Source: Promethearchaeota archaeon (GTDB lineage Archaea; Asgardarchaeota; Lokiarchaeia; Sigyniarchaeales; SOKP01). From it: a stretch of 43,014 bases of DNA. The notes beneath the pieces are model-generated. The model was given only the letters and a program-made list of their open reading frames with translations, made no database searches and was not told where the DNA came from. Positions 2,914 to 28,731 of the stretch are shown piece after piece (positions within the stretch are counted from its first letter, which is position 1; the number at the start of each line of letters is the position of its first letter). The stretch is from assembly GCA_048941285.1 (NCBI GenBank), contig JBHLNS010000030.1, positions 1-43,014 on the forward strand. Reading direction: 5' to 3'. The position numbers and the translations under genes were made by a program.

Positions 2914-4407
2914 CTAATAATGTGGAACTCTCTTATTTTCTTCTAATTTTAAAGTTATATGCTTTTTACTCTTAGTTTTTTTGGAATTAGCAATTTTTTC
3001 TAATAAGGATAAACCGGGTTTCACGTCTGCTATTGGTTTGGATTCAATTAATTTGTTTTTAATTAACTCATTATATAATTCCATTCCTTTCTCAGTCCTA
3101 ATTAGGACTGTGTTCCATCCTGAAGGAGATCCTATTGATCCAATTGATATATCTGCTGATTCAGATGTTAAATCATAACACATTTCACAATCTTCTCTTG
3201 CTAAATGTGAAATTTCTTTAATTGGAATATTTAGTTCATCTCCATTTTTAGTATAAACAAAGAATTTTCCTTTATTAATGTCCATTTTCTTTGCGTTATT
3301 AATATCAATGTTTAGTTTCTTACAAATATTTAAAATAGATTCGTAAGAAAAAGATTCCATACAGAAGATACCAATTCTATATTCCACATTATTTACTGAT
3401 GGAAATCCTATGTTATAAATATTGGATTTTAGAAGAGCTTGCATTTGGCAAGGTACTCCTACAACCGCAATTTTTTTCCCATTTAATTCGTTTTCATTCA
3501 ATAATTGTAAATTAGGATTGTTCACATATTTAGTACCTGCTGAAGAGAGGATATCTTCCTTGTTTTTAATTAGAATTGGTTCAGGTCGCCATAAAGTATT
3601 ACTCATTTTGGCTCCAATTGCTAAATTAATTTTATTTTTTTCTAAAAGATACTGTATACAAGTGCTTGAAATGCCTCCATCTTGACAAATTTCAGATATT
3701 TCTTTTATTTTAGTTCTTGCGGAATAGGCTTCAATATAATGTCCAATTTTACCATAATTTTTAATTTCAGAAGCATGTTCCTGAGTCATATTTAAGATTT
3801 TAACTGGTAAATAAGTCCTAGGACAAACAAAATAGCATAAGCCACACCTAATGCATTTATCTTCATCAATTTTTCCAAAACCATTATAAATACGAAGACA
3901 ATTTACTGGACAGATTCCAGCACAGAGCCCGCAACCTGAACAATTTTTAGATTCAAATATAACCTTTACAGGTTCATAAATTGTTTTGAGTTTTGAAATT
4001 TCTCCGTCTAAAACTTGGATTGAAAAATCATTGAAGATTAGATTTTCAGGATTATCTTCATCTCCTTCAATTTCATCATATAATTCTTCCACAATTATAA
4101 GTCTCTCATTTCTAAGTAATTCGAATAAACTTAATGTTTTAGTTAAATCAAGAGAATTAGTTTTAGAAAATATGCTTAAAGTTTTGAGATTATTATCAGA
4201 ATTTTTTTTTAAAAAATTAAATAAAGAGTATTTTAATTTTTCTTCATCTAACATTCTATAAAGGATAGTATCATACTCTATTTCATTATATATTCCAGCT
4301 TCTAAAATTTCACGTTTAGCATCAATAAACGCTCGAATTCTATATGAATCTAATGCATCTGCTAGATTTTTTAAAAATTCCCATGAAAGATTATTTTCAA
4401 GACTCAT
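2914..4407 (-). CDS. Coenzyme F420 hydrogenase/dehydrogenase beta-subunit family protein (FrhB/FdhB/FpoF-like) with 2x[4Fe-4S] domain and about 140-aa N-terminal extension
   Basis: CSGCGLCAGICP and CIRCGLCYFVCP ferredoxin motifs; FrhB motifs QDGG, AGTKY, VGVPCQ, IGIFCMESF, C..CYD....ADISIGSIGSP.GWNTV. Confidence 0.9.
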   Translation of the reverse strand: MSLENNLSWEFLKNLADALDSYRIRAFIDAKREILEAGIYNEIEYDTILYRMLDEEKLKYSLFNFLKKNSDNNLKTLSIFSKTNSLDLTKTLSLFELLRNERLIIVEELYDEIEGDEDNPENLIFNDFSIQVLDGEISKLKTIYEPVKVIFESKNCSGCGLCAGICPVNCLRIYNGFGKIDEDKCIRCGLCYFVCPRTYLPVKILNMTQEHASEIKNYGKIGHYIEAYSARTKIKEISEICQDGGISSTCIQYLLEKNKINLAIGAKMSNTLWRPEPILIKNKEDILSSAGTKYVNNPNLQLLNENELNGKKIAVVGVPCQMQALLKSNIYNIGFPSVNNVEYRIGIFCMESFSYESILNICKKLNIDINNAKKMDINKGKFFVYTKNGDELNIPIKEISHLAREDCEMCYDLTSESADISIGSIGSPSGWNTVLIRTEKGMELYNELIKNKLIESKPIADVKPGLSLLEKIANSKKTKSKKHITLKLEENKRVPHY

Positions 4408-4440
4408 AATTTTATGAAATACTTTTTAAATACAAATTTT

Positions 4441-4500
4441 TCCGAAAACCCGGGCTTGGGGTTAGTTTCTTTTCAACTATTATTTTTTTGAAAAGATCAT
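4441..4500 (-). promoter_or_regulatory. Candidate SECIS-like structured RNA 3' of mvhD
   Basis: One nt after the mvhD TAG: AUGA, then a perfect 9-bp stem UCUUUUCAA/UUGAAAAGA with an A-rich 11-nt loop, then a GC-rich AACCC/GGGUU hairpin. The 3' GA of a canonical kink-turn core is not cleanly placed. Confidence 0.35.
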
Positions 4501-4501
4501 T

Positions 4502-4927
4502 CTAATTCGGATTATATTTTGGTAATGGAGGGAGACTATGAATTTTGGATGAGATATCTTCGACTGATCTTATAAATTTTTCAACTTCTGCCGCTGAACA
4601 AAAATATTGCTGAACTCTTTCTTCAGAAATACCTTCATGTTTTAATAATTTCTTTAATGTTAGAACGTGTTCATATGTAGTAGTATTACCATTTCCAAAT
4701 TCACATTCTCCTTCTTTTCAAGAAATTATTGCAACACCATCAGCACCATTTAAAAAAGCCTCCATAATTAGATGGATCCCAATTCTTCCAGTACATCTCA
4801 CACGAATGAGATGAAAGTCTGTAGAGTAAGATTTTCTCGTAACTCCTGTTAAGTCTGCTGCTGAATACCCTCACTTATCACAACCAAAAGCTATAATTCT
4901 TCTTGAATTATTTTTTTTAGTAGCCAT
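4502..4927 (-). CDS. mvhD: Hydrogenase iron-sulfur delta subunit MvhD/VhuD, selenoprotein with 2 Sec (141 aa); absent from the ORF track
   Basis: Manual translation: MATKKNNSRRIIAFGCDK-U19-GYSAADLTG...IRVRCTGRI...EAFLNGADGVAIIS-U70-KEGECEFGNGN...GISEERV...CSAAE...LPPLPKYNPN-TAG. TGA codons at 4871-4873 and 4718-4720 occupy conserved Cys positions; SD GAGGT upstream. Confidence 0.93.
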
Positions 4928-4939
4928 TATTTTTTACCT

Positions 4940-6952
4940 CTAATTTACTGATTGGTCAACACTTTCAGATGACACATCTATTAATTCTGCTTCACTGCAT
5001 CCAATACCTTTAATTTCTTGAGTAAATTGTTTATCACGGTAATATTTTAAGTCAATAGCTCTTGCTGGACAAGATGATATGCACACACCACAACCTTTAC
5101 ATTTTAAATCGTCAACTTCTGCAATTTCACTTTCATTTACTTTTATTGCTTCGTATGTACAGAGTTTTTCACACCTGCGACAGCCCATACAGAGATTCTT
5201 ATCTACTTCAGCAATAATTAATTCTTGTTTGATAGTATCATGCGATAAAATCGTTGATGCTTTACTTGCTGCCGCCAATGCAGAAGATACTGAATAGGGA
5301 ATGTTTTTTGGCCCCGCAGCACAGCCAGCTATGTATATTCCTAAATCCTTTGTTTCTTGTGGGTTTAAGCATCCATGAATTTCAGAGAGGAATCCTCCGG
5401 GACCTTTAGTTAATCCCATTACATTAATCATTTCTTCAGTGCCTTTTGACGGAATCATTCCTGTTGATAAGACGACTAGATCAGCATCAATTTTTACAAT
5501 TTCTCCAGTTAAGGATGAATAAGCTCTAACTTTTAGCTTATTTGTTTTAGTATCTTCTATAATTTCACCTACCTTTCCTCTAATCATTCGAATGCCTGAT
5601 TCTCGTATTTTTCTATAGTATTCTTCATTGCCTTTATCTGTTGTTCGAATATCAATATAGAACATGATCACGTCCATTTCTGGATATTCTTGCTTTAATA
5701 ATTGAGCATTTTTAAGTGCCACACTACAACAAACAAATGAACAATAAGGATTTGCATTTACATCCCTAGAGCCTACACATTGAATCATTACAACAGTTTT
5801 TGGTGTTTCTCCGTTTGATATTCTATATACATGTCCTCCAGTAGGGCCAATCGGACTTAAAAGTCTTTCTAATTCTATCTGAGTTATAACGTCAGGATAG
5901 TATCCATAATTATATTCGTTTGACTTCCATATTGGATACTCGTCCCAACCTGTGGCAACAATTACAGCTCCTACTTTAACATCTACATATTCTACTTCTT
6001 GTTCAAAATTTATTGCTTCAGCTGGACATATGCGTTCACAATTTTTACAATCGATACATACACTTCTGTCCATCACAGCTAATTTAGGTACTGCTTGCGG
6101 AAAAGGTATATAAATTGCTCCTCTCTCACCTATACCTCTATCAAATTCACTAGGAACTTTGATAGGACATTTAGTTGTACATAATCCACACCCTGTACAT
6201 TTTTTTTCGTCTACATAACGGGGGTTTTTCCGGATCTTAACTTTATAATCTCCAGGAATACCACTAAATTCCACTACATCACTATATGTAAATAGGTTTA
6301 TATTTGGGTGTTTTGATGCATTTACCATTATTGGTGCCAAAACTCATATTCCACAATCATCAGTTGGATAAATTCTATCTAACTGTGCCATTTTACCTCC
6401 AATAGTAGCTTCTTTCTCTACTAAATACACAGGGGTCCCTTGATTAGCTAAATCTAAAGCAGCATTCATCCCAGCAATACCTGCACCGACAATTAACACA
6501 GCTTTTTCAACAGGAATTTCTTTTCTAGGAATATTTTCCAATTCACGGGCACGATTGATTCCAGCTTTAACTAATCTTATAGCTTTCTCAGTTGCTTTAT
6601 TCTTATCATCCCTATGAACAAAAGAACAGTGTTCTCTTAAATTTACCATTTGAAAAAAATACGGACTTAAACCAGCTTCAACTAGTACAGCTCTATAGGT
6701 TGGTTCATGAATTTTTGGGGTACAAGCAGCAACTACTACTCTATTTAGATCTTGTTCTAAAATATCATTTCTAATAGTATTTTGTCCAGGATCTGAACAT
6801 GTAAATGAATTAACTCTAGAAATGACCACATTTGGTAAGTTTTCTATTGCGGTTTTAACTGCATCACAATCAACAGAAGCTTTAATATTCACGCCTCACT
6901 CGCATACATAGACTCCAATTCTCGGTACATCCTTGGTCTGTTTATCAGACAT
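4940..6952 (-). CDS. hdrA: Heterodisulfide reductase subunit A (FAD, Fe-S), selenoprotein with 2 Sec (670 aa); joins track ORFs 6344..6892 and 4940..6340
   Basis: ATG 6952 behind AGGTGA. MSDKQTKDVPRIGVYVCE-U19-GVNI (TGA 6896-6898) and LDRIYPTDDCGI-U203-VLAP (TGA 6344-6346) lie in one frame. ACTP..HE, NLREHCSFVH, GAGIAG, QCVGSRD, YCSFVCC and two 2x[4Fe-4S] domains are present. Confidence 0.95.
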
Positions 6953-7180
6953 ATTTTTCACCTTCTTGTATAGCGTCACCACAATTTTTTGATAATTTGA
7001 ATTTTTTACTATATTTGATTGAGATTTGAAATTAATGAAATAATTTATTTTTTCTGATTAGAGTTCAATAGGTGGTATTAATTATTTTCTTTTGTTTTAT
7101 GTTTTAATCATTTAATTTTCAATAAAGCTTTTATAGAACTTCTCGTGAATTTTTTATTGTAAAAATAATTATTCATTAAT

Positions 7181-7472: not shown

Positions 7473-8762
7473 TTGCTTGATATTGAATTATTCAGAAAAA
7501 ATCTTGAAGATATAATTGAGTCAGAAAGAAAAAGGTTTAAGGAAACTTCAAATGCGGAAAAAGTTTTAGAATATGATATAAAATGGAGAAATATTTTACA
7601 AGAATTAGAAGATTTAAGAAAAGAAAGAAATGAAATATCAATTAAAATCGGAGAATTTAAAAAATCCGGCAATAAAAAGAAAGCTGCTGAATCGATAGCT
7701 AATTCAAAAAGAATAAAGGATAAAATTGAAGAATTAGAAAAATTGAAAGTCGAATATTTGGAACTGCGAGAAAAATATCGATATAAGGTTGGAAATATCT
7801 TGCACGAATCTGTTCCAACAGGACAAACTGATGAAGACAATGAAATTCTAAGAACTGTTGGGAGTTTACCGAAATTTGATTTTAAACCCCTCTCTCATGT
7901 CGATTTAGTCTCTAAAATTGGAGGAGTAGATACAAAAAAGGCTTCAGAATTAGTTGGATCAAGATTTTACTATTTGAAAGGGGATCTAGTATTTCTTAAT
8001 TTAGCCCTTTTAAAATTTGCTTTGGACAGACTAATAGAAAAGAATTATATTCCTATATGGCCTCCATACTTTACTAAATATGAAGTAATGAAAGCTGCAG
8101 CAGAATTGACAGATTTCGAAGAACAATTATACAAAATTCAAGATGAAGATTTATATATGATTGCTACTTCTGAGCAAACTTTAGCAGCTTATCATTATGA
8201 TGAAATAATCGAACCAGAGAAATTACCAATAAAGTATGCTGGAATTTCCTCATGTTTTAGGAGAGAAGCGGGATCGCATGGAAAAGATACCTTAGGAATT
8301 TTTAGAGTTCATCGATTTGAAAAAGTTGAACAGTTTATTTTCAGTAAACCTGAAGAATCTTGGATTTTTTTTGAAGAATTAATTAATAACGCTGAAGAAT
8401 TGTATAAAGAGTTGAAAATTCCATATAGAATAGCAAATATAGCTTCTGGAGAACTGAATGATAATGCAGCCAAAAAATACGATTTAGAAGCATGGTTCCC
8501 TGCTTCAGAGACATATCGTGAATTAGTATCATGCAGTAATTGTTTAGATTATCAAGCAAGGAAATTAAAAATACGGATGGGAATAGTGGGATCACAACAA
8601 GCAAAAGAGGTTCCGCATACATTAAATTCAACCGCAATCGCAACTGAGCGTACAATTTGTTGTATTCTCGAAAATTATCAAAATAAGGATCATTCAATTA
8701 CAATTCCAGAAGCACTTCAAAAATATATGAATGGTAAAAAAATTATTAAACCAATAAAATAA
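7473..8762 (+). CDS. serS: Seryl-tRNA synthetase (standard class II type)
   Basis: N-terminal coiled coil; IATSEQ, CFRREAG, GIFRVHRFEKVEQF, ELVSCSNC.DYQAR, HTLNSTA.ATER. Confidence 0.97.
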   Translation: MLDIELFRKNLEDIIESERKRFKETSNAEKVLEYDIKWRNILQELEDLRKERNEISIKIGEFKKSGNKKKAAESIANSKRIKDKIEELEKLKVEYLELREKYRYKVGNILHESVPTGQTDEDNEILRTVGSLPKFDFKPLSHVDLVSKIGGVDTKKASELVGSRFYYLKGDLVFLNLALLKFALDRLIEKNYIPIWPPYFTKYEVMKAAAELTDFEEQLYKIQDEDLYMIATSEQTLAAYHYDEIIEPEKLPIKYAGISSCFRREAGSHGKDTLGIFRVHRFEKVEQFIFSKPEESWIFFEELINNAEELYKELKIPYRIANIASGELNDNAAKKYDLEAWFPASETYRELVSCSNCLDYQARKLKIRMGIVGSQQAKEVPHTLNSTAIATERTICCILENYQNKDHSITIPEALQKYMNGKKIIKPIK

Positions 8763-8780
8763 AACTATATAAGAAATAAA

Positions 8781-10013
8781 ATGATTGAAAAAGATCTTGA
8801 AGATTTTGAAGCCTTTTATAAGCAACGCATAAATGCTCAGTATTTTAAAATTAAAAAAGCTACAAAGAAATTAATTCAAGAGATTAGAGAGGATTTAATA
8901 GAAATCAAAGTTTGTTTAGATCATTTCTTAGAAACAGGAAAGGAAAAAATAGATCAAAAAGCTTTAAGGTCATTGAATTTCTTTTCTGACCGTATAAGAA
9001 AAGAAGTTGATGAGATTGAAATCCCTGAAGAAGAACTAAATTATGACACTATAAATGATTTAATAAATTCAGTTAAGAAGTTATTTACTAGTATTAATGA
9101 AATTGCTAGAAAGTCTTTACCGAAGTTTCATAAAGAAGTACAAGCAGAAATTAAAGAATTAAATTATATTACTCGAAAATTAGGGAAGAAGCAAGCGCAA
9201 TTAGACGATTTTATGAGAAAAAAGTATACAGAAGTAAAAGATGCAGAATACTTACTAAAGAAATTGCCAAAACTCTATAATCTTAAGGATAATATCGAAC
9301 ATGCTAAAGTAGATTTGGATAAATTTGAGGAAGAATTGGAGGAGCGTAATAGGAACCAGGAAATTCTAAATTCAAAGCTAATAGAGATTGAACAAAATGA
9401 TCTTTTTAAAGAGTTGGATGCTGAAAAAGATACGTTATTTCAATTACAATTAAAAATCAATGATGAAATTGGGTTTAAAAAAGCCTTAAAGAAATTAAAG
9501 TTTGAATTAGAAAAAGGATCTATTCATATTTCAAATATTGATTTAAATTATATGAGGGATTTTCTTAAAAATCCGATTAGAATGTTGATCGATGAGCGTA
9601 GAGATTTACCAAAGTTTACTGCTCTTATGGTCCAATTGCGTCATGCATTGGAAGAAAATAAACTTAATCTTAAAACTGAAACGAAAGAAAAAACAATTGA
9701 CCAGATAAATACCATTTTTGATGAAAAGCAATTACAGGCAAATATTGAAAATTATTTGGAAATTGAAAATAAAATTAAAGCTTTAGAAAAAAAAATTGAA
9801 GATGCCGGACTGGCTCAAAAATTAGAAGATGTGAAAAATCAAATTTCTTCAAATACTATTAAACTTGAGCATATTGAGGCAGATTTTAGTAGAAAAAATA
9901 AGGATTATACAAGATACCTCAATGCTCTTAAAACTGAAAGAGAAGAATTCCAAAACTCAGTTGAAGACGTATTAAAAGAACAAATAAAAATTAATATAAC
10001 TTTTTCATTCTAA
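8781..10013 (+). CDS. Coiled-coil hypothetical protein (410 aa)
   Basis: Long K/E/L-rich helical ORF, 18 nt after serS; no catalytic motif seen. Confidence 0.75.
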   Translation: MIEKDLEDFEAFYKQRINAQYFKIKKATKKLIQEIREDLIEIKVCLDHFLETGKEKIDQKALRSLNFFSDRIRKEVDEIEIPEEELNYDTINDLINSVKKLFTSINEIARKSLPKFHKEVQAEIKELNYITRKLGKKQAQLDDFMRKKYTEVKDAEYLLKKLPKLYNLKDNIEHAKVDLDKFEEELEERNRNQEILNSKLIEIEQNDLFKELDAEKDTLFQLQLKINDEIGFKKALKKLKFELEKGSIHISNIDLNYMRDFLKNPIRMLIDERRDLPKFTALMVQLRHALEENKLNLKTETKEKTIDQINTIFDEKQLQANIENYLEIENKIKALEKKIEDAGLAQKLEDVKNQISSNTIKLEHIEADFSRKNKDYTRYLNALKTEREEFQNSVEDVLKEQIKINITFSF

Positions 10014-10014
10014 A

Positions 10015-10749
10015 TCATAATTTTCTTCTGCCAATTTTAAAACTTCTATTATTATTAGCATCTATTTTTTTGAGCGCTATTTTTAAATTATTTTGTAAAA
10101 ATCTAAAGACATCAGTATCCCTTAAATTAAAGACTTTTAGGTATTCATATCCTAAAACCAAATCTTGTTTAATATCTATATCAAATCCCGCTCTAAAAGA
10201 GTCATAAACAGCAATTTTATTTATGCCTTTCTTAGATGCATTATTAAGCAAGGCTACTAAAGAAGGAGTATTTGGATCTGAAAAATAGGATGAAATGATA
10301 TTAGGTGGGTTCCTTGCAAGAATTGAAATCCCTGCGGAATGAATAGCGGGGCAAATTACTAATTGATTCTCTTGGATTAATTCATTAATTTCATAAAAAT
10401 TTTTTGAGGATACTAATATTAAATCCAAAAAAGAAAACACTGTTTGCCTTGCATCATATTTTTTTATTGCAATATTATTAAGATCTTCTATGACCTCATC
10501 AAATGATTTAAGGGGGGATGTTAATTCCTCTTTTATCCCAATTAAATCATAATCTCTAGCAAGCTCCAATATTTCAGGAGTGTTGCAATATACAATCTTT
10601 TGATCGAAACAAGCTACATCTTTCAATGTCTTTCCAAGATCCTTAAACATAGCAATTGTTAAATCTTTTAACTGTTTATTGGAGAAACAATCTCTAAGGC
10701 GAGATTTTGTCCTTGTCAACGGAGCCACGGGAATAAGTAAAATACTCAT
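10015..10749 (-). CDS. cofC: 2-phospho-L-lactate/PEP guanylyltransferase (F420 biosynthesis)
   Basis: LIPV....TKSRL...F......L...M..D N-terminus and FDID...DL C-terminal motif. Confidence 0.85.
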   Translation of the reverse strand: MSILLIPVAPLTRTKSRLRDCFSNKQLKDLTIAMFKDLGKTLKDVACFDQKIVYCNTPEILELARDYDLIGIKEELTSPLKSFDEVIEDLNNIAIKKYDARQTVFSFLDLILVSSKNFYEINELIQENQLVICPAIHSAGISILARNPPNIISSYFSDPNTPSLVALLNNASKKGINKIAVYDSFRAGFDIDIKQDLVLGYEYLKVFNLRDTDVFRFLQNNLKIALKKIDANNNRSFKIGRRKL

Positions 10750-10836: not shown

Positions 10837-11394
10837 TTATTTAAAAGTGTTTAAAATCTGAACAGATAAACTCTCAAAGGCTTCATCTACATTCTCATTT
10901 AATTTCGCGGAGGTTTCAAAATATTTTACTCCAACCATTTTTATTTTATTTTCAATAACTTCTTTATCTACTTTTCTTGATAAATCTCTTTTATTTCCCA
11001 CTATAATATATGGTACGTTTCCACTTAACTCTTTCAATTTTTCTATCCAAAAGTCAATATTTTCATAGGAAGATATTTTATCTAAGGAAAAAATTACCAT
11101 CGCACCAACCGCTTGAACAAAATAATATTCGTTAGCCCATAATTTATCTGTTTGCCCTCCAATATCCCAAAAGTAAAGTTTAAAACCTTTATCTTTAATA
11201 TCCTTCTTTAATTTTGGATTTTTTATATCCAATTGATCTAAAATCTTAGTTAAATCAATTTCTTTAATTAGAAAATTAGCTCCTATGGTTTGATGATATT
11301 CTTCACTAAATTGGTCATCAACATATTGAGCTAATAGGCTAGTCTTGCCAACACCTGCGTCTCCGAGTAATATAACCTTTCCACGATAAGACAT
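10837..11394 (-). CDS. Rab-like small GTPase
   Basis: G1 GDAGVGKT, G2 TIGANF, G3 WDIGGQ, G4 GNKRD, G5 ETSAK; no C-terminal Cys. Confidence 0.93.
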   Translation of the reverse strand: MSYRGKVILLGDAGVGKTSLLAQYVDDQFSEEYHQTIGANFLIKEIDLTKILDQLDIKNPKLKKDIKDKGFKLYFWDIGGQTDKLWANEYYFVQAVGAMVIFSLDKISSYENIDFWIEKLKELSGNVPYIIVGNKRDLSRKVDKEVIENKIKMVGVKYFETSAKLNENVDEAFESLSVQILNTFK

Positions 11395-27423: not shown

Positions 27424-28731
27424 TTATTTAATTTCCTTTAATTTAGATATGCCATTGCGTATTAAAACTAATATTTCTTTGAGTTCATGTTTTTCCACTA
27501 TTAAGGGTGGTAAAATTTTGAGAGTATCCTTTTTATTATTACAATAATCTAGCAACACTCCTTCTTTTATTATAGAAAGCATTGCTAATTGACTATCCGT
27601 TTCATTATAGAACTCTACACCACACATAAGACCTCTACCCCGAATTTCTTTAATTAAATCAGAAAATTCATTTTTTATTACTTCTAAACCCTCTTGTAAC
27701 AGCTTTCCCATTAGTTTAACATGATCTAAAAATTTTTGATCTGATTGAATTTTTAACATTTCAAGAGCAATAGCACATCCTATATCAGCCCCTCCTGTAG
27801 TTGAAATGTGAATAAATGGATCATCTTTATAAACCGCTTTTTCAATAAATGGCCTATAACTGCATGTAGACAATGGATAAATTCCTGCTGTCATTCCTTT
27901 TCCTAATACCATAAAATCTGGCACCACTTTTTCATTTACATAAAGCCCTCCATCTATAGCCCATAAATGACCTGTTCGACCTAATCCTGCTTGAACTTCA
28001 TCTATTATCATCATAGTGCCTGCATTATCACATATTTCTCTAACCTCTGCGAAATAACCCTCACGAGCAATCAATATACCAGCAGTAGCGGGAATAGTTT
28101 CTAATATCACACAAGCAATATCATCAGTTACCGCTTTTTTCATAGCATCAATATCCCCAAATGGAACTTGTTTAAATCCTGGGACTTGCCAAAGGAATTT
28201 ATCTCTAAATCCAGGATCCCCAGTTGCTAAAGCAAAGCCAGTATGTCCATGATATCCACCTATAGCTGATACACAACCTTTCCGTTTTGTATATGCTCTT
28301 GAAAATTTGATAGCACAATCTATCGACTCCCCGCCTCCAACTCCAAATGTGGTTTTACTGATATCACCTGGTAACAAGTCAGCAAGTTTTTTACCTAAAA
28401 GAGCTCTTTGTTCAGATAAGAGAATATGATCACCAATATCCAATCCTTCTTCCAATGCATCTTTTATTAATTTAAAAATAAGAGGATTCTGATGCCCTAA
28501 GTTATATACACCACCTGAAGTTCGACAATTAAAAAATTCTAAAGGTGGTTCACCAGGTCGCGAGCTCTCCAATGCTCGTAACTTAACTCCCTTTCTCTCT
28601 CCTGGAATAACTCCTAAGCCAAGACTTTTAAAAAATCGAACTTTAGGGCCATTAACATATTTATTATAAAGCTTGAGTAATTCCTTTTGAGGTAGAGTCC
28701 CAATAAATTTTCTTGAAGTTTTCTCTTTCAT
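27424..28731 (-). CDS. Class III PLP-dependent aminotransferase (putrescine/ornithine aminotransferase-like)
   Basis: NLGH, GGESID.A.K, YHG, IIDEVQAGLGRTG, LGKG, STTGG, RGRGLM. Confidence 0.92.
   Translation of the reverse strand: MKEKTSRKFIGTLPQKELLKLYNKYVNGPKVRFFKSLGLGVIPGERKGVKLRALESSRPGEPPLEFFNCRTSGGVYNLGHQNPLIFKLIKDALEEGLDIGDHILLSEQRALLGKKLADLLPGDISKTTFGVGGGESIDCAIKFSRAYTKRKGCVSAIGGYHGHTGFALATGDPGFRDKFLWQVPGFKQVPFGDIDAMKKAVTDDIACVILETIPATAGILIAREGYFAEVREICDNAGTMMIIDEVQAGLGRTGHLWAIDGGLYVNEKVVPDFMVLGKGMTAGIYPLSTCSYRPFIEKAVYKDDPFIHISTTGGADIGCAIALEMLKIQSDQKFLDHVKLMGKLLQEGLEVIKNEFSDLIKEIRGRGLMCGVEFYNETDSQLAMLSIIKEGVLLDYCNNKKDTLKILPPLIVEKHELKEILVLIRNGISKLKEIK

Follow-up and report, generated by a model that had tools for sequence, protein, structure and literature searches.

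The locus described here raises the question of how a gene for an HdrA-type flavoprotein, which carries two in-frame TGA codons, is translated in an archaeon of the Promethearchaeota. The Loki lineage is now called Promethearchaeota or Promethearchaeia. The stretch of DNA analysed, called the window below, comprises 43,014 nucleotides, and the features of hdrA within it are as follows:

4940..6952, minus strand: hdrA, 670 codons and a TAG stop, HdrA-type FAD/iron-sulfur flavoprotein with predicted Sec19 and Sec203
6896-6898, minus strand: TGA of the putative Sec codon 19, in an N-terminal C-x-U-G motif (context VYVCE-TGA-GVNI)
6344-6346, minus strand: TGA of the putative Sec codon 203, in a D-C-x-x-U motif, the canonical Sec site of HdrA (context PTDDCGI-TGA-VLAP)
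6936..6950, minus strand: small hairpin GUCUG-N5-CAGAC, whose first base is the G of the ATG

When TGA was translated as U, hdrA formed a single open minus-strand frame that runs from the ATG at 6950-6952 to the TAG at 4940-4942, with 670 sense codons and exactly two in-frame TGAs, codons 19 and 203 counted from the ATG. The initial annotation had described one frame of 670 amino acids with two in-frame UGAs, and both contexts that it quoted were found again in the translation; the observation of a two-Sec hdrA frame is thereby confirmed, far beyond chance. Its further claim that standard gene calling fragments hdrA and removes the N-terminus was also borne out. Translation table 11 splits the gene into ORFs 6344..6892 (182 aa, GTG start) and 4940..6340 (466 aa, TTG start), and the first 18 codons are missing from these calls. 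The stop codon is TAG, and in the orthologues it is TAA or TAG wherever the alignment includes the stop.

The protein was assigned to the HdrA family by its domains and by structural alignment. Pfam matches covered Fer4 families, Pyr_redox_2, and FAD-binding or FAD/NAD-binding domains, and the full HdrA set was present: a Cys-rich N-terminal domain, a FAD-binding thioredoxin-reductase-like domain, an inserted ferredoxin, and a C-terminal ferredoxin. HdrA aligned end to end with the solved chains 9sfi_A (E 1e-216) and 5odc_A (E 9e-209), residues 9-650 matching residues 3-649 of both. Codon 19 aligned with Cys13 in both chains, and codon 203 with Cys197 of 5odc_A and with a non-standard residue X of 9sfi_A, which is the modelled Sec197 of Methanococcus HdrA according to an excerpt of the source paper (PMC13518236). 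The earlier statements that both TGAs occupy Cys positions of HdrA, and that D-C-x-x-U is the known Sec site of methanogens, agree with these alignments and, for the Cys positions, with conservation across loci. The best NCBIfam match was HdrA2 (NF040770), with 820 bits under a cut-off of 1100; two other equivalog models gave 609 bits under a cut-off of 1300 and 592 bits under one of 1400, so that all scores were below their cut-offs. By these cut-offs and by the genes adjacent to hdrA, where hdrBC was looked for, equivalence to the methanogen CoB-CoM heterodisulfide reductase HdrA was not found: the window contained no hdrBC, and contig C43 gave no match to the CCG domain of HdrB. From the low scores and the lack of an HdrB match on this contig, we consider the product an HdrA-family protein for which a heterodisulfide substrate is not implied.

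Both TGAs were invariant in all 19 orthologues, which come from separately assembled genomes, at a pS of 0.4-0.6. The codon of the neighbouring Cys17 varied among the same sequences (TGC in 8, TGT in 11). The pN/pS ratio was 0.385 for codons 1-18, 0.125 for codons 20-202, and 0.094 for codons 204-650; these low values on all sides of the TGAs indicate that the stretches before, between, and after them are all translated. Among 30 related loci, 28 cover codon 19, and 24 of these have TGA there; codon 203 is TGA in 29 of 29. A second set of 80 species-representative loci, which probably overlaps with the first in genomes, gave TGA 62, Cys 12, and uncovered 6 for position 19, and TGA 66, Cys 12, and uncovered 2 for position 203. 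In homologues from bacterial-labelled contigs, position 19 was Cys in 12 of 12; positions 17, 19, 52, 77, and 203 were Cys in the TGA-free paralogues as well as in homologues on such contigs, and HdrA paralogues with four Sec residues have them at 19, 52, 77, and 203. The initial annotation had regarded the N-terminal Sec as the less common site, a view that could not be upheld, as all 62 TGA-bearing homologues of the 80-locus set that cover position 19 have it. Judged by these alignments, the predicted N-terminal Sec19 is the rule in the Loki lineage and not a rarity.

In the read data, none of the best runs contained more than half of the sampled words. Contigs built from reads were short pieces of mixed strains, none of which spanned the stretch, and no TGA was among the 40 difference rows listed out of 250. 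Contigs from the RNA library covered positions 6387-6935 only.

Two further genes and a hairpin follow hdrA on the same strand:

4502..4927, minus strand: mvhD/vhuD, 141 codons and a TAG stop (Pfam FlpD PF02662, E 5e-38)
4871-4873, minus strand: TGA of the putative Sec19 of mvhD, in frame at an invariant Cys column
4718-4720, minus strand: TGA of the putative Sec70 of mvhD, in frame at an invariant Cys column
4452..4514, minus strand: Loki-type SECIS directly behind mvhD, with AUGA at 4497-4500 and the 3' AA at 4466-4467
2914..4407, minus strand: frhB-like gene encoding 497 aa, with two [4Fe-4S] motifs and FrhB N- and C-terminal domains (FrhB_FdhB_N/C, Fer4)

Only 12 nt separate the hdrA stop (4940-4942) from the ATG of mvhD (4925-4927). 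With the VhuD model NF045873, mvhD scored 119 bits, under the cut-off of 215. It was located downstream of hdrA in 27 of the 30 related loci, and those 27 had TGA at position 19 without exception and at both positions in 24 cases. The second locus set gave TGA 59 and Cys 11 at position 19, and TGA 56 and Cys 14 at position 70. The initial annotation mentioned neither this gene with its two TGAs nor the shared SECIS, which constitute the actual decoding unit. The frhB-like gene scored 295.7 bits with PRK09325, above the cut-off of 269, and every one of the 21 orthologous loci examined (L018-L037 and L044) has it downstream of mvhD; it is probably the third gene of the module. Its start is 45 nt past the SECIS match, and the element may therefore be intercistronic rather than located in a 3' UTR.

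The SECIS hairpin has a 9-bp stem in which positions 4488-4496 pair with 4468-4476 (strands UCUUUUCAA and UUGAAAAGA), closed by an A-rich apical loop of 11 nt, AAAAAUAAUAG (4477-4487), that starts with AAAAA; in the lower helix, UAG pairs with CUA. The 3' side of the core is AA, not GA, and an excerpt of Huang et al. 2024 (PMC11227280) reports such an AUGA_AA variant for hdrA/frhD of Lokiarchaeia. The fold had a z-score of -2.6. In the alignment 95.4% of the cells were paired, and three pairs had changed on both sides, a number reached by 87 of 500 shuffles; covariation, as far as the aligned sequences can speak for the fold, gives weak support because they are close kin. A strict SECIS pattern scan of the whole genome returned 13 rows, several of them A/T-rich chance hairpins, and was set aside in favour of a covariance model. 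With this model, which was built from the very family it scores, the hairpin behind mvhD was, at 87.3 bits, the sole strong match in the 43-kb window, followed by one of 16.2 bits at 27868-27908. All 21 orthologous loci have the element after mvhD. An hdrA paralogue on contig C67, which lacks mvhD, retains the same SECIS right after hdrA (79.9 bits), as would be expected if the UGAs of hdrA itself depend on the element. With a permissive threshold, Rfam detected no SECIS family in 4200-7100 and gave four chance-level matches only, one of which, KRAS_3UTR (E 6.3), falls on the SECIS hairpin.

The initial annotation had also stated that the lineage encodes selenocysteine, and the machinery was located in the genome. 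A tRNA-SeC (anticodon tca) lies on contig C52, with SepSecS (376 bits) about 200 bases or less away and an EFSec-like factor some 4 kb beyond this pair (TIGR00475, 240.1 bits against a cut-off of 242.25). PSTK was recognized by PF08433 (122 bits), with TIGR03574 as the best match at 154.2 bits, below its cut-off of 290.5, and there are two selD genes with one TGA each. Genome-wide, TGA ends 228 of 1840 frames of at least 250 codons and is thus a normal stop, and the in-frame TGAs fall only at cysteine positions. As side observations, a membrane ORF of 71 aa that contains one TGA occurred in only 2 of 31 genomes, and the AlphaFold model of a Sec-Sec side protein had a mean pLDDT of 56, too low for searching by fold.

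We consider it very likely that this Loki-type Asgard archaeon (Promethearchaeota) has here a functional selenoprotein operon, in which a two-Sec hdrA and a two-Sec mvhD share one SECIS. Both genes would most likely be carried on one transcript, and Sec-tRNA(Sec) with an EFSec-type factor would decode the four UGAs as selenocysteine. This factor would be recruited, across two cistrons, by the single eukaryote-like (Loki-type) SECIS behind mvhD, which follows the four UGAs at distances of about 0.2, 0.4, 1.8, and 2.4 kb. HdrA and MvhD, probably together with the FrhB-like protein, would then form an F420-linked module for flavin-based electron bifurcation or confurcation.

Several other explanations were weighed against this operon. 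That hdrA is a pseudogene with nonsense mutations, or that its TGAs are errors of sequencing or assembly, is what the fragments from standard gene calling would suggest; this reading is effectively refuted, as separately assembled genomes share the same two TGAs in 19 of 19 orthologues, pN/pS remains at 0.09-0.39 around them, and the pattern is repeated in 62 (codon 19) and 66 (codon 203) further loci. A changed code or near-cognate decoding, by which the TGAs would be read as a standard residue such as Cys or Trp, might appeal to some public gene calls for another family in these organisms that translate TGA as W, although these were made with code 4 on short contigs. The regular use of TGA as a stop in 228 of 1840 long frames, the confinement of the in-frame TGAs to cysteine positions, and the presence of a SECIS with the full Sec machinery make this reading very improbable.

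Within a selenocysteine interpretation, the UGAs of hdrA might still be served by another signal in or near this gene, for example the hairpin at its start codon. All 19 orthologues have the same letters in its 5-bp stem, with a variable loop, and the stem codons TCT, CAG, and ACC account for 31%, 17%, and 8% of their respective codon families in the rest of these genes; its fold energy is -5.0 kcal/mol. A single SECIS that would act over 2.4 kb and a cistron boundary was called "unparalleled" in an excerpt of Mariotti et al. (PMC4989117). However, the SECIS model gave no second match in or near hdrA, the C67 paralogue has its SECIS right behind hdrA although mvhD is missing, and the start hairpin lacks the AUGA/GA kink-turn core. 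We therefore regard a separate signal for hdrA as improbable and retain the operon with one shared SECIS.

The functional meaning of the selenocysteines may lie in the electron-gating part of the complex. HdrA's N-terminal domain carries the mobile [4Fe-4S] 'shuttle' cluster HA3, and exactly four cysteine positions are invariant in this domain, 17, 19, 52, and 77, of which Sec19 is one. They correspond to Cys11, Cys13, Cys46, and Cys71 of the solved structures. Cys197, position 203 here, was reported as an in-trans ligand of HA3 (PMC9012536), and the residue at this position reportedly holds a ligand of unknown identity between MvhD's [2Fe-2S] cluster and FAD (PMC13580544). Sec70 of MvhD lies immediately before the Lys/Glu counterparts of His68 and Asp71, which touch that unknown ligand (PMC13580544). 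All four Sec residues map to the mobile arm by which solved Hdr complexes gate electron bifurcation. From Sec19 in the HA3 domain, the trans-ligand or gate site at 203, and Sec70 beside the ligand contacts, one could tentatively propose that in Loki-type archaea the bifurcating arm bears an iron-sulfur 'shuttle' and gate with partial or complete selenolate ligation, a reading that we consider possible yet rather unlikely. Before these structures, Mariotti et al. had stated, in an excerpt of their paper, that these positions do not coordinate clusters (PMC4989117).

HdrA's N-terminal domain and MvhD may resemble each other. A profile-profile comparison of the two, which asked whether Sec19 of HdrA and Sec19 of MvhD are homologous positions, was not significant (probability 0.4%, E 0.16). 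As gene callers cut both hdrA and mvhD, databases misrepresent a redox enzyme that is central to these archaea.

HdrA2 of Methanosarcina (NF040770) is a natural HdrA-MvhD fusion that works with F420H2. HdrA covers positions 1-645 of its model and MvhD positions 642-772, and the two genes here thus correspond to a split HdrA2; in contrast to HdrA2, they are separate, contain Sec, and score 820 and 118 bits, under the cut-off of 1100. The HdrA of methanogens (Methanococcus) aligns end to end with the present protein, with Sec203 corresponding to Sec197 of the C-x-x-U pair near FAD, whereas the N-terminal C-x-C-G motif has Cys there and not Sec. According to the same excerpt of Mariotti et al. 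(PMC4989117), VhuD of Methanococcales likewise has two Sec residues about 50 codons apart, and the methanogen genes have a SECIS of the euryarchaeal type and are sited with vhu hydrogenase genes, whereas the neighbour here is the FrhB-like gene.

With eukaryotic SECIS elements that serve multiple UGAs, as in selenoprotein P, the hairpin shares the AUGA kink-turn core, the A-rich apical loop, the downstream location, and the presumed action at a distance (PMC4989117). It differs in that no SBP2 is known in Asgard archaea and that one element would serve two cistrons here. The combination of a multi-Sec HdrA with one eukaryote-like SECIS for two cistrons over 2.4 kb is a published argument for an archaeal origin of the eukaryotic SECIS.

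The closest counterpart is the HdrA-VhuD pair of Lokiarchaeota, and the two-plus-two arrangement of Sec residues in hdrA and mvhD with one shared SECIS is already published, in 2016 and 2024. Mariotti et al. 2016 described tandem HdrA-VhuD selenoprotein genes with one common lokiSECIS and a multi-Sec HdrA (PMC4989117), and Huang et al. 2024 surveyed the same pair as hdrA-frhD with type I eSECIS-like structures (PMC11227280, in excerpt). As in that pair, hdrA directly precedes vhuD on one strand, the two being separated by very few nucleotides (12 here), HdrA has the canonical Sec near position 200 and an extra Sec at a conserved Cys, and VhuD (about 150 aa; 141 aa here) has two Sec residues, which are 51 codons apart. 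The single SECIS, only behind vhuD, also agrees in its AUGA, 9-bp stem, and 11-nt A-run loop. According to the excerpt of the 2016 paper, hdrA of the Loki lineage has UAA or UAG as its stop, never UGA (PMC4989117), a rule that the TAG stops of hdrA and mvhD match. Since paralogues with four Sec residues use 19, 52, 77, and 203, codon 19 is very probably one of the 'five possible positions' of Mariotti et al. Nothing essential differs, the 3' core being AA rather than GA; the locus is one more well-conserved example of a known arrangement, and its remaining interest is mechanistic.

Translation of the reverse strand gave a single hdrA frame interrupted by two TGAs only, in the contexts VYVCE-TGA-GVNI and PTDDCGI-TGA-VLAP, as the initial annotation had described. 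Its expectation that standard gene calling would fragment the gene and drop its N-terminus was also borne out: calling with table 11 split the frame into ORFs at 6344..6892 and 4940..6340, dropping codons 1-18. A Shine-Dalgarno-like GGTGA motif lies a few bases 5' of the ATG. What the initial annotation had missed is the mvhD gene that follows, with two further TGAs and a SECIS behind it. The features, with selenocysteine (Sec) written as U, are as follows.

6950-6952 (ATG) to 4940-4942 (TAG), reverse strand: hdrA frame, 670 sense codons by translation
6896-6898, reverse strand: TGA at hdrA codon 19, counted from the ATG
6344-6346, reverse strand: TGA at hdrA codon 203, counted from the ATG
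6936-6950, reverse strand: hairpin GUCUG-N5-CAGAC, 5 bp, with the G of the hdrA ATG as its first base
4927 to 4505, reverse strand: mvhD/vhuD (also frhD), 141 codons, starting 12 bases past the hdrA stop; FlpD, E 5e-38
mvhD codons 19 (FGCDK-U-GYSAAD) and 70 (IIS-U-KEGEC), reverse strand: in-frame TGAs by translation
Starting 45 nt past the SECIS model match: frhB-like gene, 497 aa, two [4Fe-4S] motifs, FrhB N- and C-terminal domains
10015-10749: CofC-like F420-biosynthesis gene

The HdrA product contains four ferredoxin-type [4Fe-4S] motifs and an FAD/NAD-binding fold (Pfam), and residues 9-650 aligned without large gaps to 9sfi_A (E 1e-216), 5odc_A (E 9e-209), 8rvu_a, and 7bkb_A. In these alignments, codon 19 was opposite Cys13 of 9sfi_A and 5odc_A, which is the latter of the two cysteines in the N-terminal C-x-C-G motif, and codon 203 was opposite Cys197 of 5odc_A and a non-standard residue (X) of 9sfi_A, reported as a selenocysteine (Sec197) that forms a bond with a cysteine near the FAD (PMC13518236). 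Both TGAs are therefore at HdrA cysteine positions, and the second is the known DCxxU site of methanogens, as had been proposed. The best NCBIfam model was HdrA2 (820 bits). Because no NCBIfam equivalog cut-off was reached by HdrA and no HdrB-type CCG domain was found on the window's contig, the product is classified by sequence as an HdrA-family flavoprotein, with no heterodisulfide substrate implied.

One base after the TAG stop of mvhD, an AUGA is followed by a perfect 9-bp stem (UCUUUUCAA/UUGAAAAGA) capped by a loop of 11 nt (AAAAAUAAUAG); AA and a short lower helix come next. This anatomy matches that given for the lokiSECIS in PMC4989117 (9-bp stem, 11-nt apical loop, AUGA core, and adenosine run), and PMC11227280 records the AUGA_AA core variant in hdrA/frhD of Lokiarchaeia. 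Eighteen such hairpins were used to build a covariance model, which found one strong match in the window, at 4452-4514 on the reverse strand (87.3 bits); the second-best score was 16.2 bits, at 27868-27908. By pattern or model, the SECIS was present behind mvhD in 21/21 orthologous loci. In the alignment, 95.4% of cells were paired and both-sided changes occurred in 3 of 12 pairs, a level reached by 87 of 500 shuffles; covariation support from these sequences is modest, since they are close kin.

Homologous loci were gathered from 40 related genomes, and 30 loci were read. Codon 203 was TGA in 29/29 loci; codon 19 was covered in 28 loci and was TGA in 24 of them, the four exceptions being more distant paralogues (L042, and L045-L047 with a TGA at position 52 instead). 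A further 80 loci, drawn from species-representative genomes, formed a second sample that probably overlaps the first; there, position 19 was TGA in 62, Cys in 12, and uncovered in 6, and position 203 was TGA in 66, Cys in 12, and uncovered in 2. The 12 all-Cys loci were those with identity of 42-45%, and their contigs carry bacterial MAG labels. The N-terminal Sec, which the initial annotation had considered the less common site, is new only relative to methanogens and is the rule in this lineage. Seventy of the 80 loci carried mvhD, with TGA and Cys in 59 and 11 at position 19 and in 56 and 14 at position 70.

Selection was examined in 19 full-length orthologues with 78-95% protein identity. 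Both hdrA TGAs were unchanged in all 19, at high synonymous divergence (pS 0.40-0.61); the adjacent Cys17 codon was TGC in 8 and TGT in 11. Values of pN/pS were 0.385 for codons 1-18, 0.125 for codons 20-202, and 0.094 for codons 204-650 (0.600 in the variable tail, 651-670), so all three stretches parted by the TGAs are under purifying selection as protein. TGA is not reassigned across the genome, where it closes 228 of the 1840 stop-to-stop frames with 250 or more codons. At the hdrA start codon, the stem letters of the hairpin were the same in 19/19 orthologues and the loop was variable. The identical stem uses minority codons (elsewhere in these genes, TCT accounts for 31%, CAG for 17%, and ACC for 8% of its codon family), which points to selection on the RNA; the hairpin may be a translational control element.

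The source genome (G000; 3.55 Mb, 101 contigs, 29.7% G+C, 94% complete) contains the Sec machinery that the initial annotation had said to look for.

Contig C52: tRNA-SeC, anticodon TCA
Contig C52, ~200 bases from tRNA-SeC: SepSecS, 376 bits
~4 kb beyond SepSecS: EFSec-like GTPase, TIGR00475 240.1 bits, just short of the 242.25 cut-off of this bacterial model
In the same genome: PSTK, PF08433 122 bits; best match TIGR03574, 154 bits, under cut-off
G000:C39:20541-22670, forward strand: two tandem selD (selenophosphate synthetase) genes, one in-frame TGA each

Divergent from hdrA and upstream of it is a gene for seryl-tRNA synthetase (7473-8762, forward strand), the enzyme that charges tRNA-Sec with serine. 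This neighbourhood recurs in 16/30 and 30/80 related loci and may be plain synteny among kin. Farther along are a 410-aa ORF (8781-10013, forward strand), for which no family was found in Pfam or NCBIfam, and a Ras-family small GTPase gene (10837-11394, reverse strand); such genes are typical of Asgard archaea.

A whole-genome search with the SECIS model returned six places: the window locus, contigs C4, C67, C36, and C24, and a weak one on C23. Two of these accompany hdrA paralogues.

G000:C4:44771-47198, forward strand (L051): hdrA-mvhD pair, HdrA TGAs at 19, 52, 77, and 203, two-Sec mvhD
G000:C67:9265-11361, reverse strand (L049): hdrA paralogue, 71% identity, TGA at 19 and 203

The C4 SECIS (C4:47154-47198, 35.8 bits) lies behind mvhD. 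Relatives have 3 to 5 TGAs, and one of them, L130, has an extra TGA at position 305, within a ferredoxin motif. On C67, no mvhD was found behind hdrA; the SECIS (C67:9265-9327, 79.9 bits) lies directly past the hdrA stop, and the last ~30 residues of HdrA resemble the MvhD C-terminus. The sequence suggests that mvhD was deleted and the SECIS kept with hdrA, as expected if the hdrA UGAs depend on the hairpin. Compared with the hairpin in the window, that of C67 has C-G in place of U-A at two stem pairs, both fully compensated, and G-U in place of A-U at one. C67-type hdrA also occurs in L038-L040; in L040 (G022:C1), a third TGA is opposite Arg114, not a cysteine, and may mark a genuine stop, gene decay, or an additional Sec. 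Tandem HdrA-like gene pairs occur on C3, C4, C31, C67, and C78, with the same complementary pattern as in ANME archaea (PMC9012536).

Two of the remaining matches led to other candidate selenoproteins. The SECIS model reached a 158-aa protein (G000:C24:5603-6079, reverse strand; L052:1558-2034) with two adjacent TGAs (HAD-U-U-ADV), its own SECIS, and an adjoining SBF/Acr3-type transporter gene. Two TGAs were present in 31/31 matches, from 27 of 31 genomes, and were adjacent in 9 of 10 fetched loci, those with the protein fully read. In public gene calls it is either truncated to 118 aa or has WW at the TGAs; no family was found in Pfam or NCBIfam, and it was not found in the accessible portions of published selenoprotein accounts. 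A 71-aa ORF (G000:C36:38441-38737, forward strand; L050:1264-1560) has two hydrophobic stretches, one TGA (IIA-U-GHIL), and a SECIS match (39.7 bits) 20 nt downstream; homologues occurred in 2/31 genomes, one with three tandem copies, each with a TGA. On contig C88, a SECIS-like hairpin at ~20063 follows the N-terminal portion of a [NiFe]-hydrogenase large subunit (G000:C88:18687-20110, forward strand), which may be a VhuA/VhuU-type selenoprotein.

The 497-aa FrhB-like protein scored 295.7 bits with PRK09325, over the cut-off, and its gene trails mvhD in 21/21 orthologous loci, so the unit is probably an FrhB-MvhD-HdrA module, which, from the FrhB family name, would exchange electrons with F420. 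Exactly four cysteines are invariant in the HdrA N-terminal domain (17, 19, 52, and 77), also in the source-genome paralogues, and three of them (19, 52, and 77) are the additional Sec positions seen in this genus. Chadwick et al. (2022) list the crystal N-terminal [4Fe-4S] cluster ligands as the domain cysteines plus Cys197 of the partner HdrA (PMC9012536). A 2026 cryo-EM study describes this cluster (HA3) as a mobile electron shuttle and an unidentified ligand gripped by a Cys202/Cys205 pair and MvhD Asp71, near His68 (PMC13580544). That pair corresponds to C200/U203 here, and MvhD Sec70 is followed directly by Lys71 and, three residues on, by Glu74, conservative counterparts of His68 and Asp71. 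With Sec19 among the N-terminal cysteines and U203 and the Sec70 region at the reported ligand, we hypothesize that all four Sec residues would be on the mobile arm gating bifurcation; it stays a hypothesis, as a profile comparison did not show the HdrA N-terminal domain and MvhD to be homologous. If true, the pre-structure statement of Mariotti et al. (2016) that the extra Sec positions do not coordinate clusters (PMC4989117) may need revising.

Measured to the AUGA core, the four UGAs are 218, 371, 1844, and 2396 nt upstream. We infer that hdrA and mvhD would be co-transcribed on one polycistronic mRNA, with the single SECIS acting across cistrons on all four. In the published model, one SECIS on one polycistronic mRNA serves distant UGAs and not codons too close to it (PMC4989117); the TAG ending of each gene, the short spacer between them, and the presence of a single element fit this model. 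In Lokiarchaeota, Mariotti et al. (2016) reported VhuD always directly downstream of HdrA and a single lokiSECIS behind VhuD for up to six UGAs over ~2 kb (PMC4989117), and codon 19 would be one of their five HdrA Sec positions. Sun et al. (2021) included HdrA and MvhD among selenoproteins of further Asgard classes, and Huang et al. (2024) catalogued selenoproteins of Asgard archaea, 1439 in all, and described hdrA-frhD clusters in which one eSECIS-like structure is shared (PMC11227280). The two-Sec hdrA finding is correct and already known: every feature tested at the window locus agreed with the HdrA-VhuD arrangement set out by Mariotti et al. (2016).
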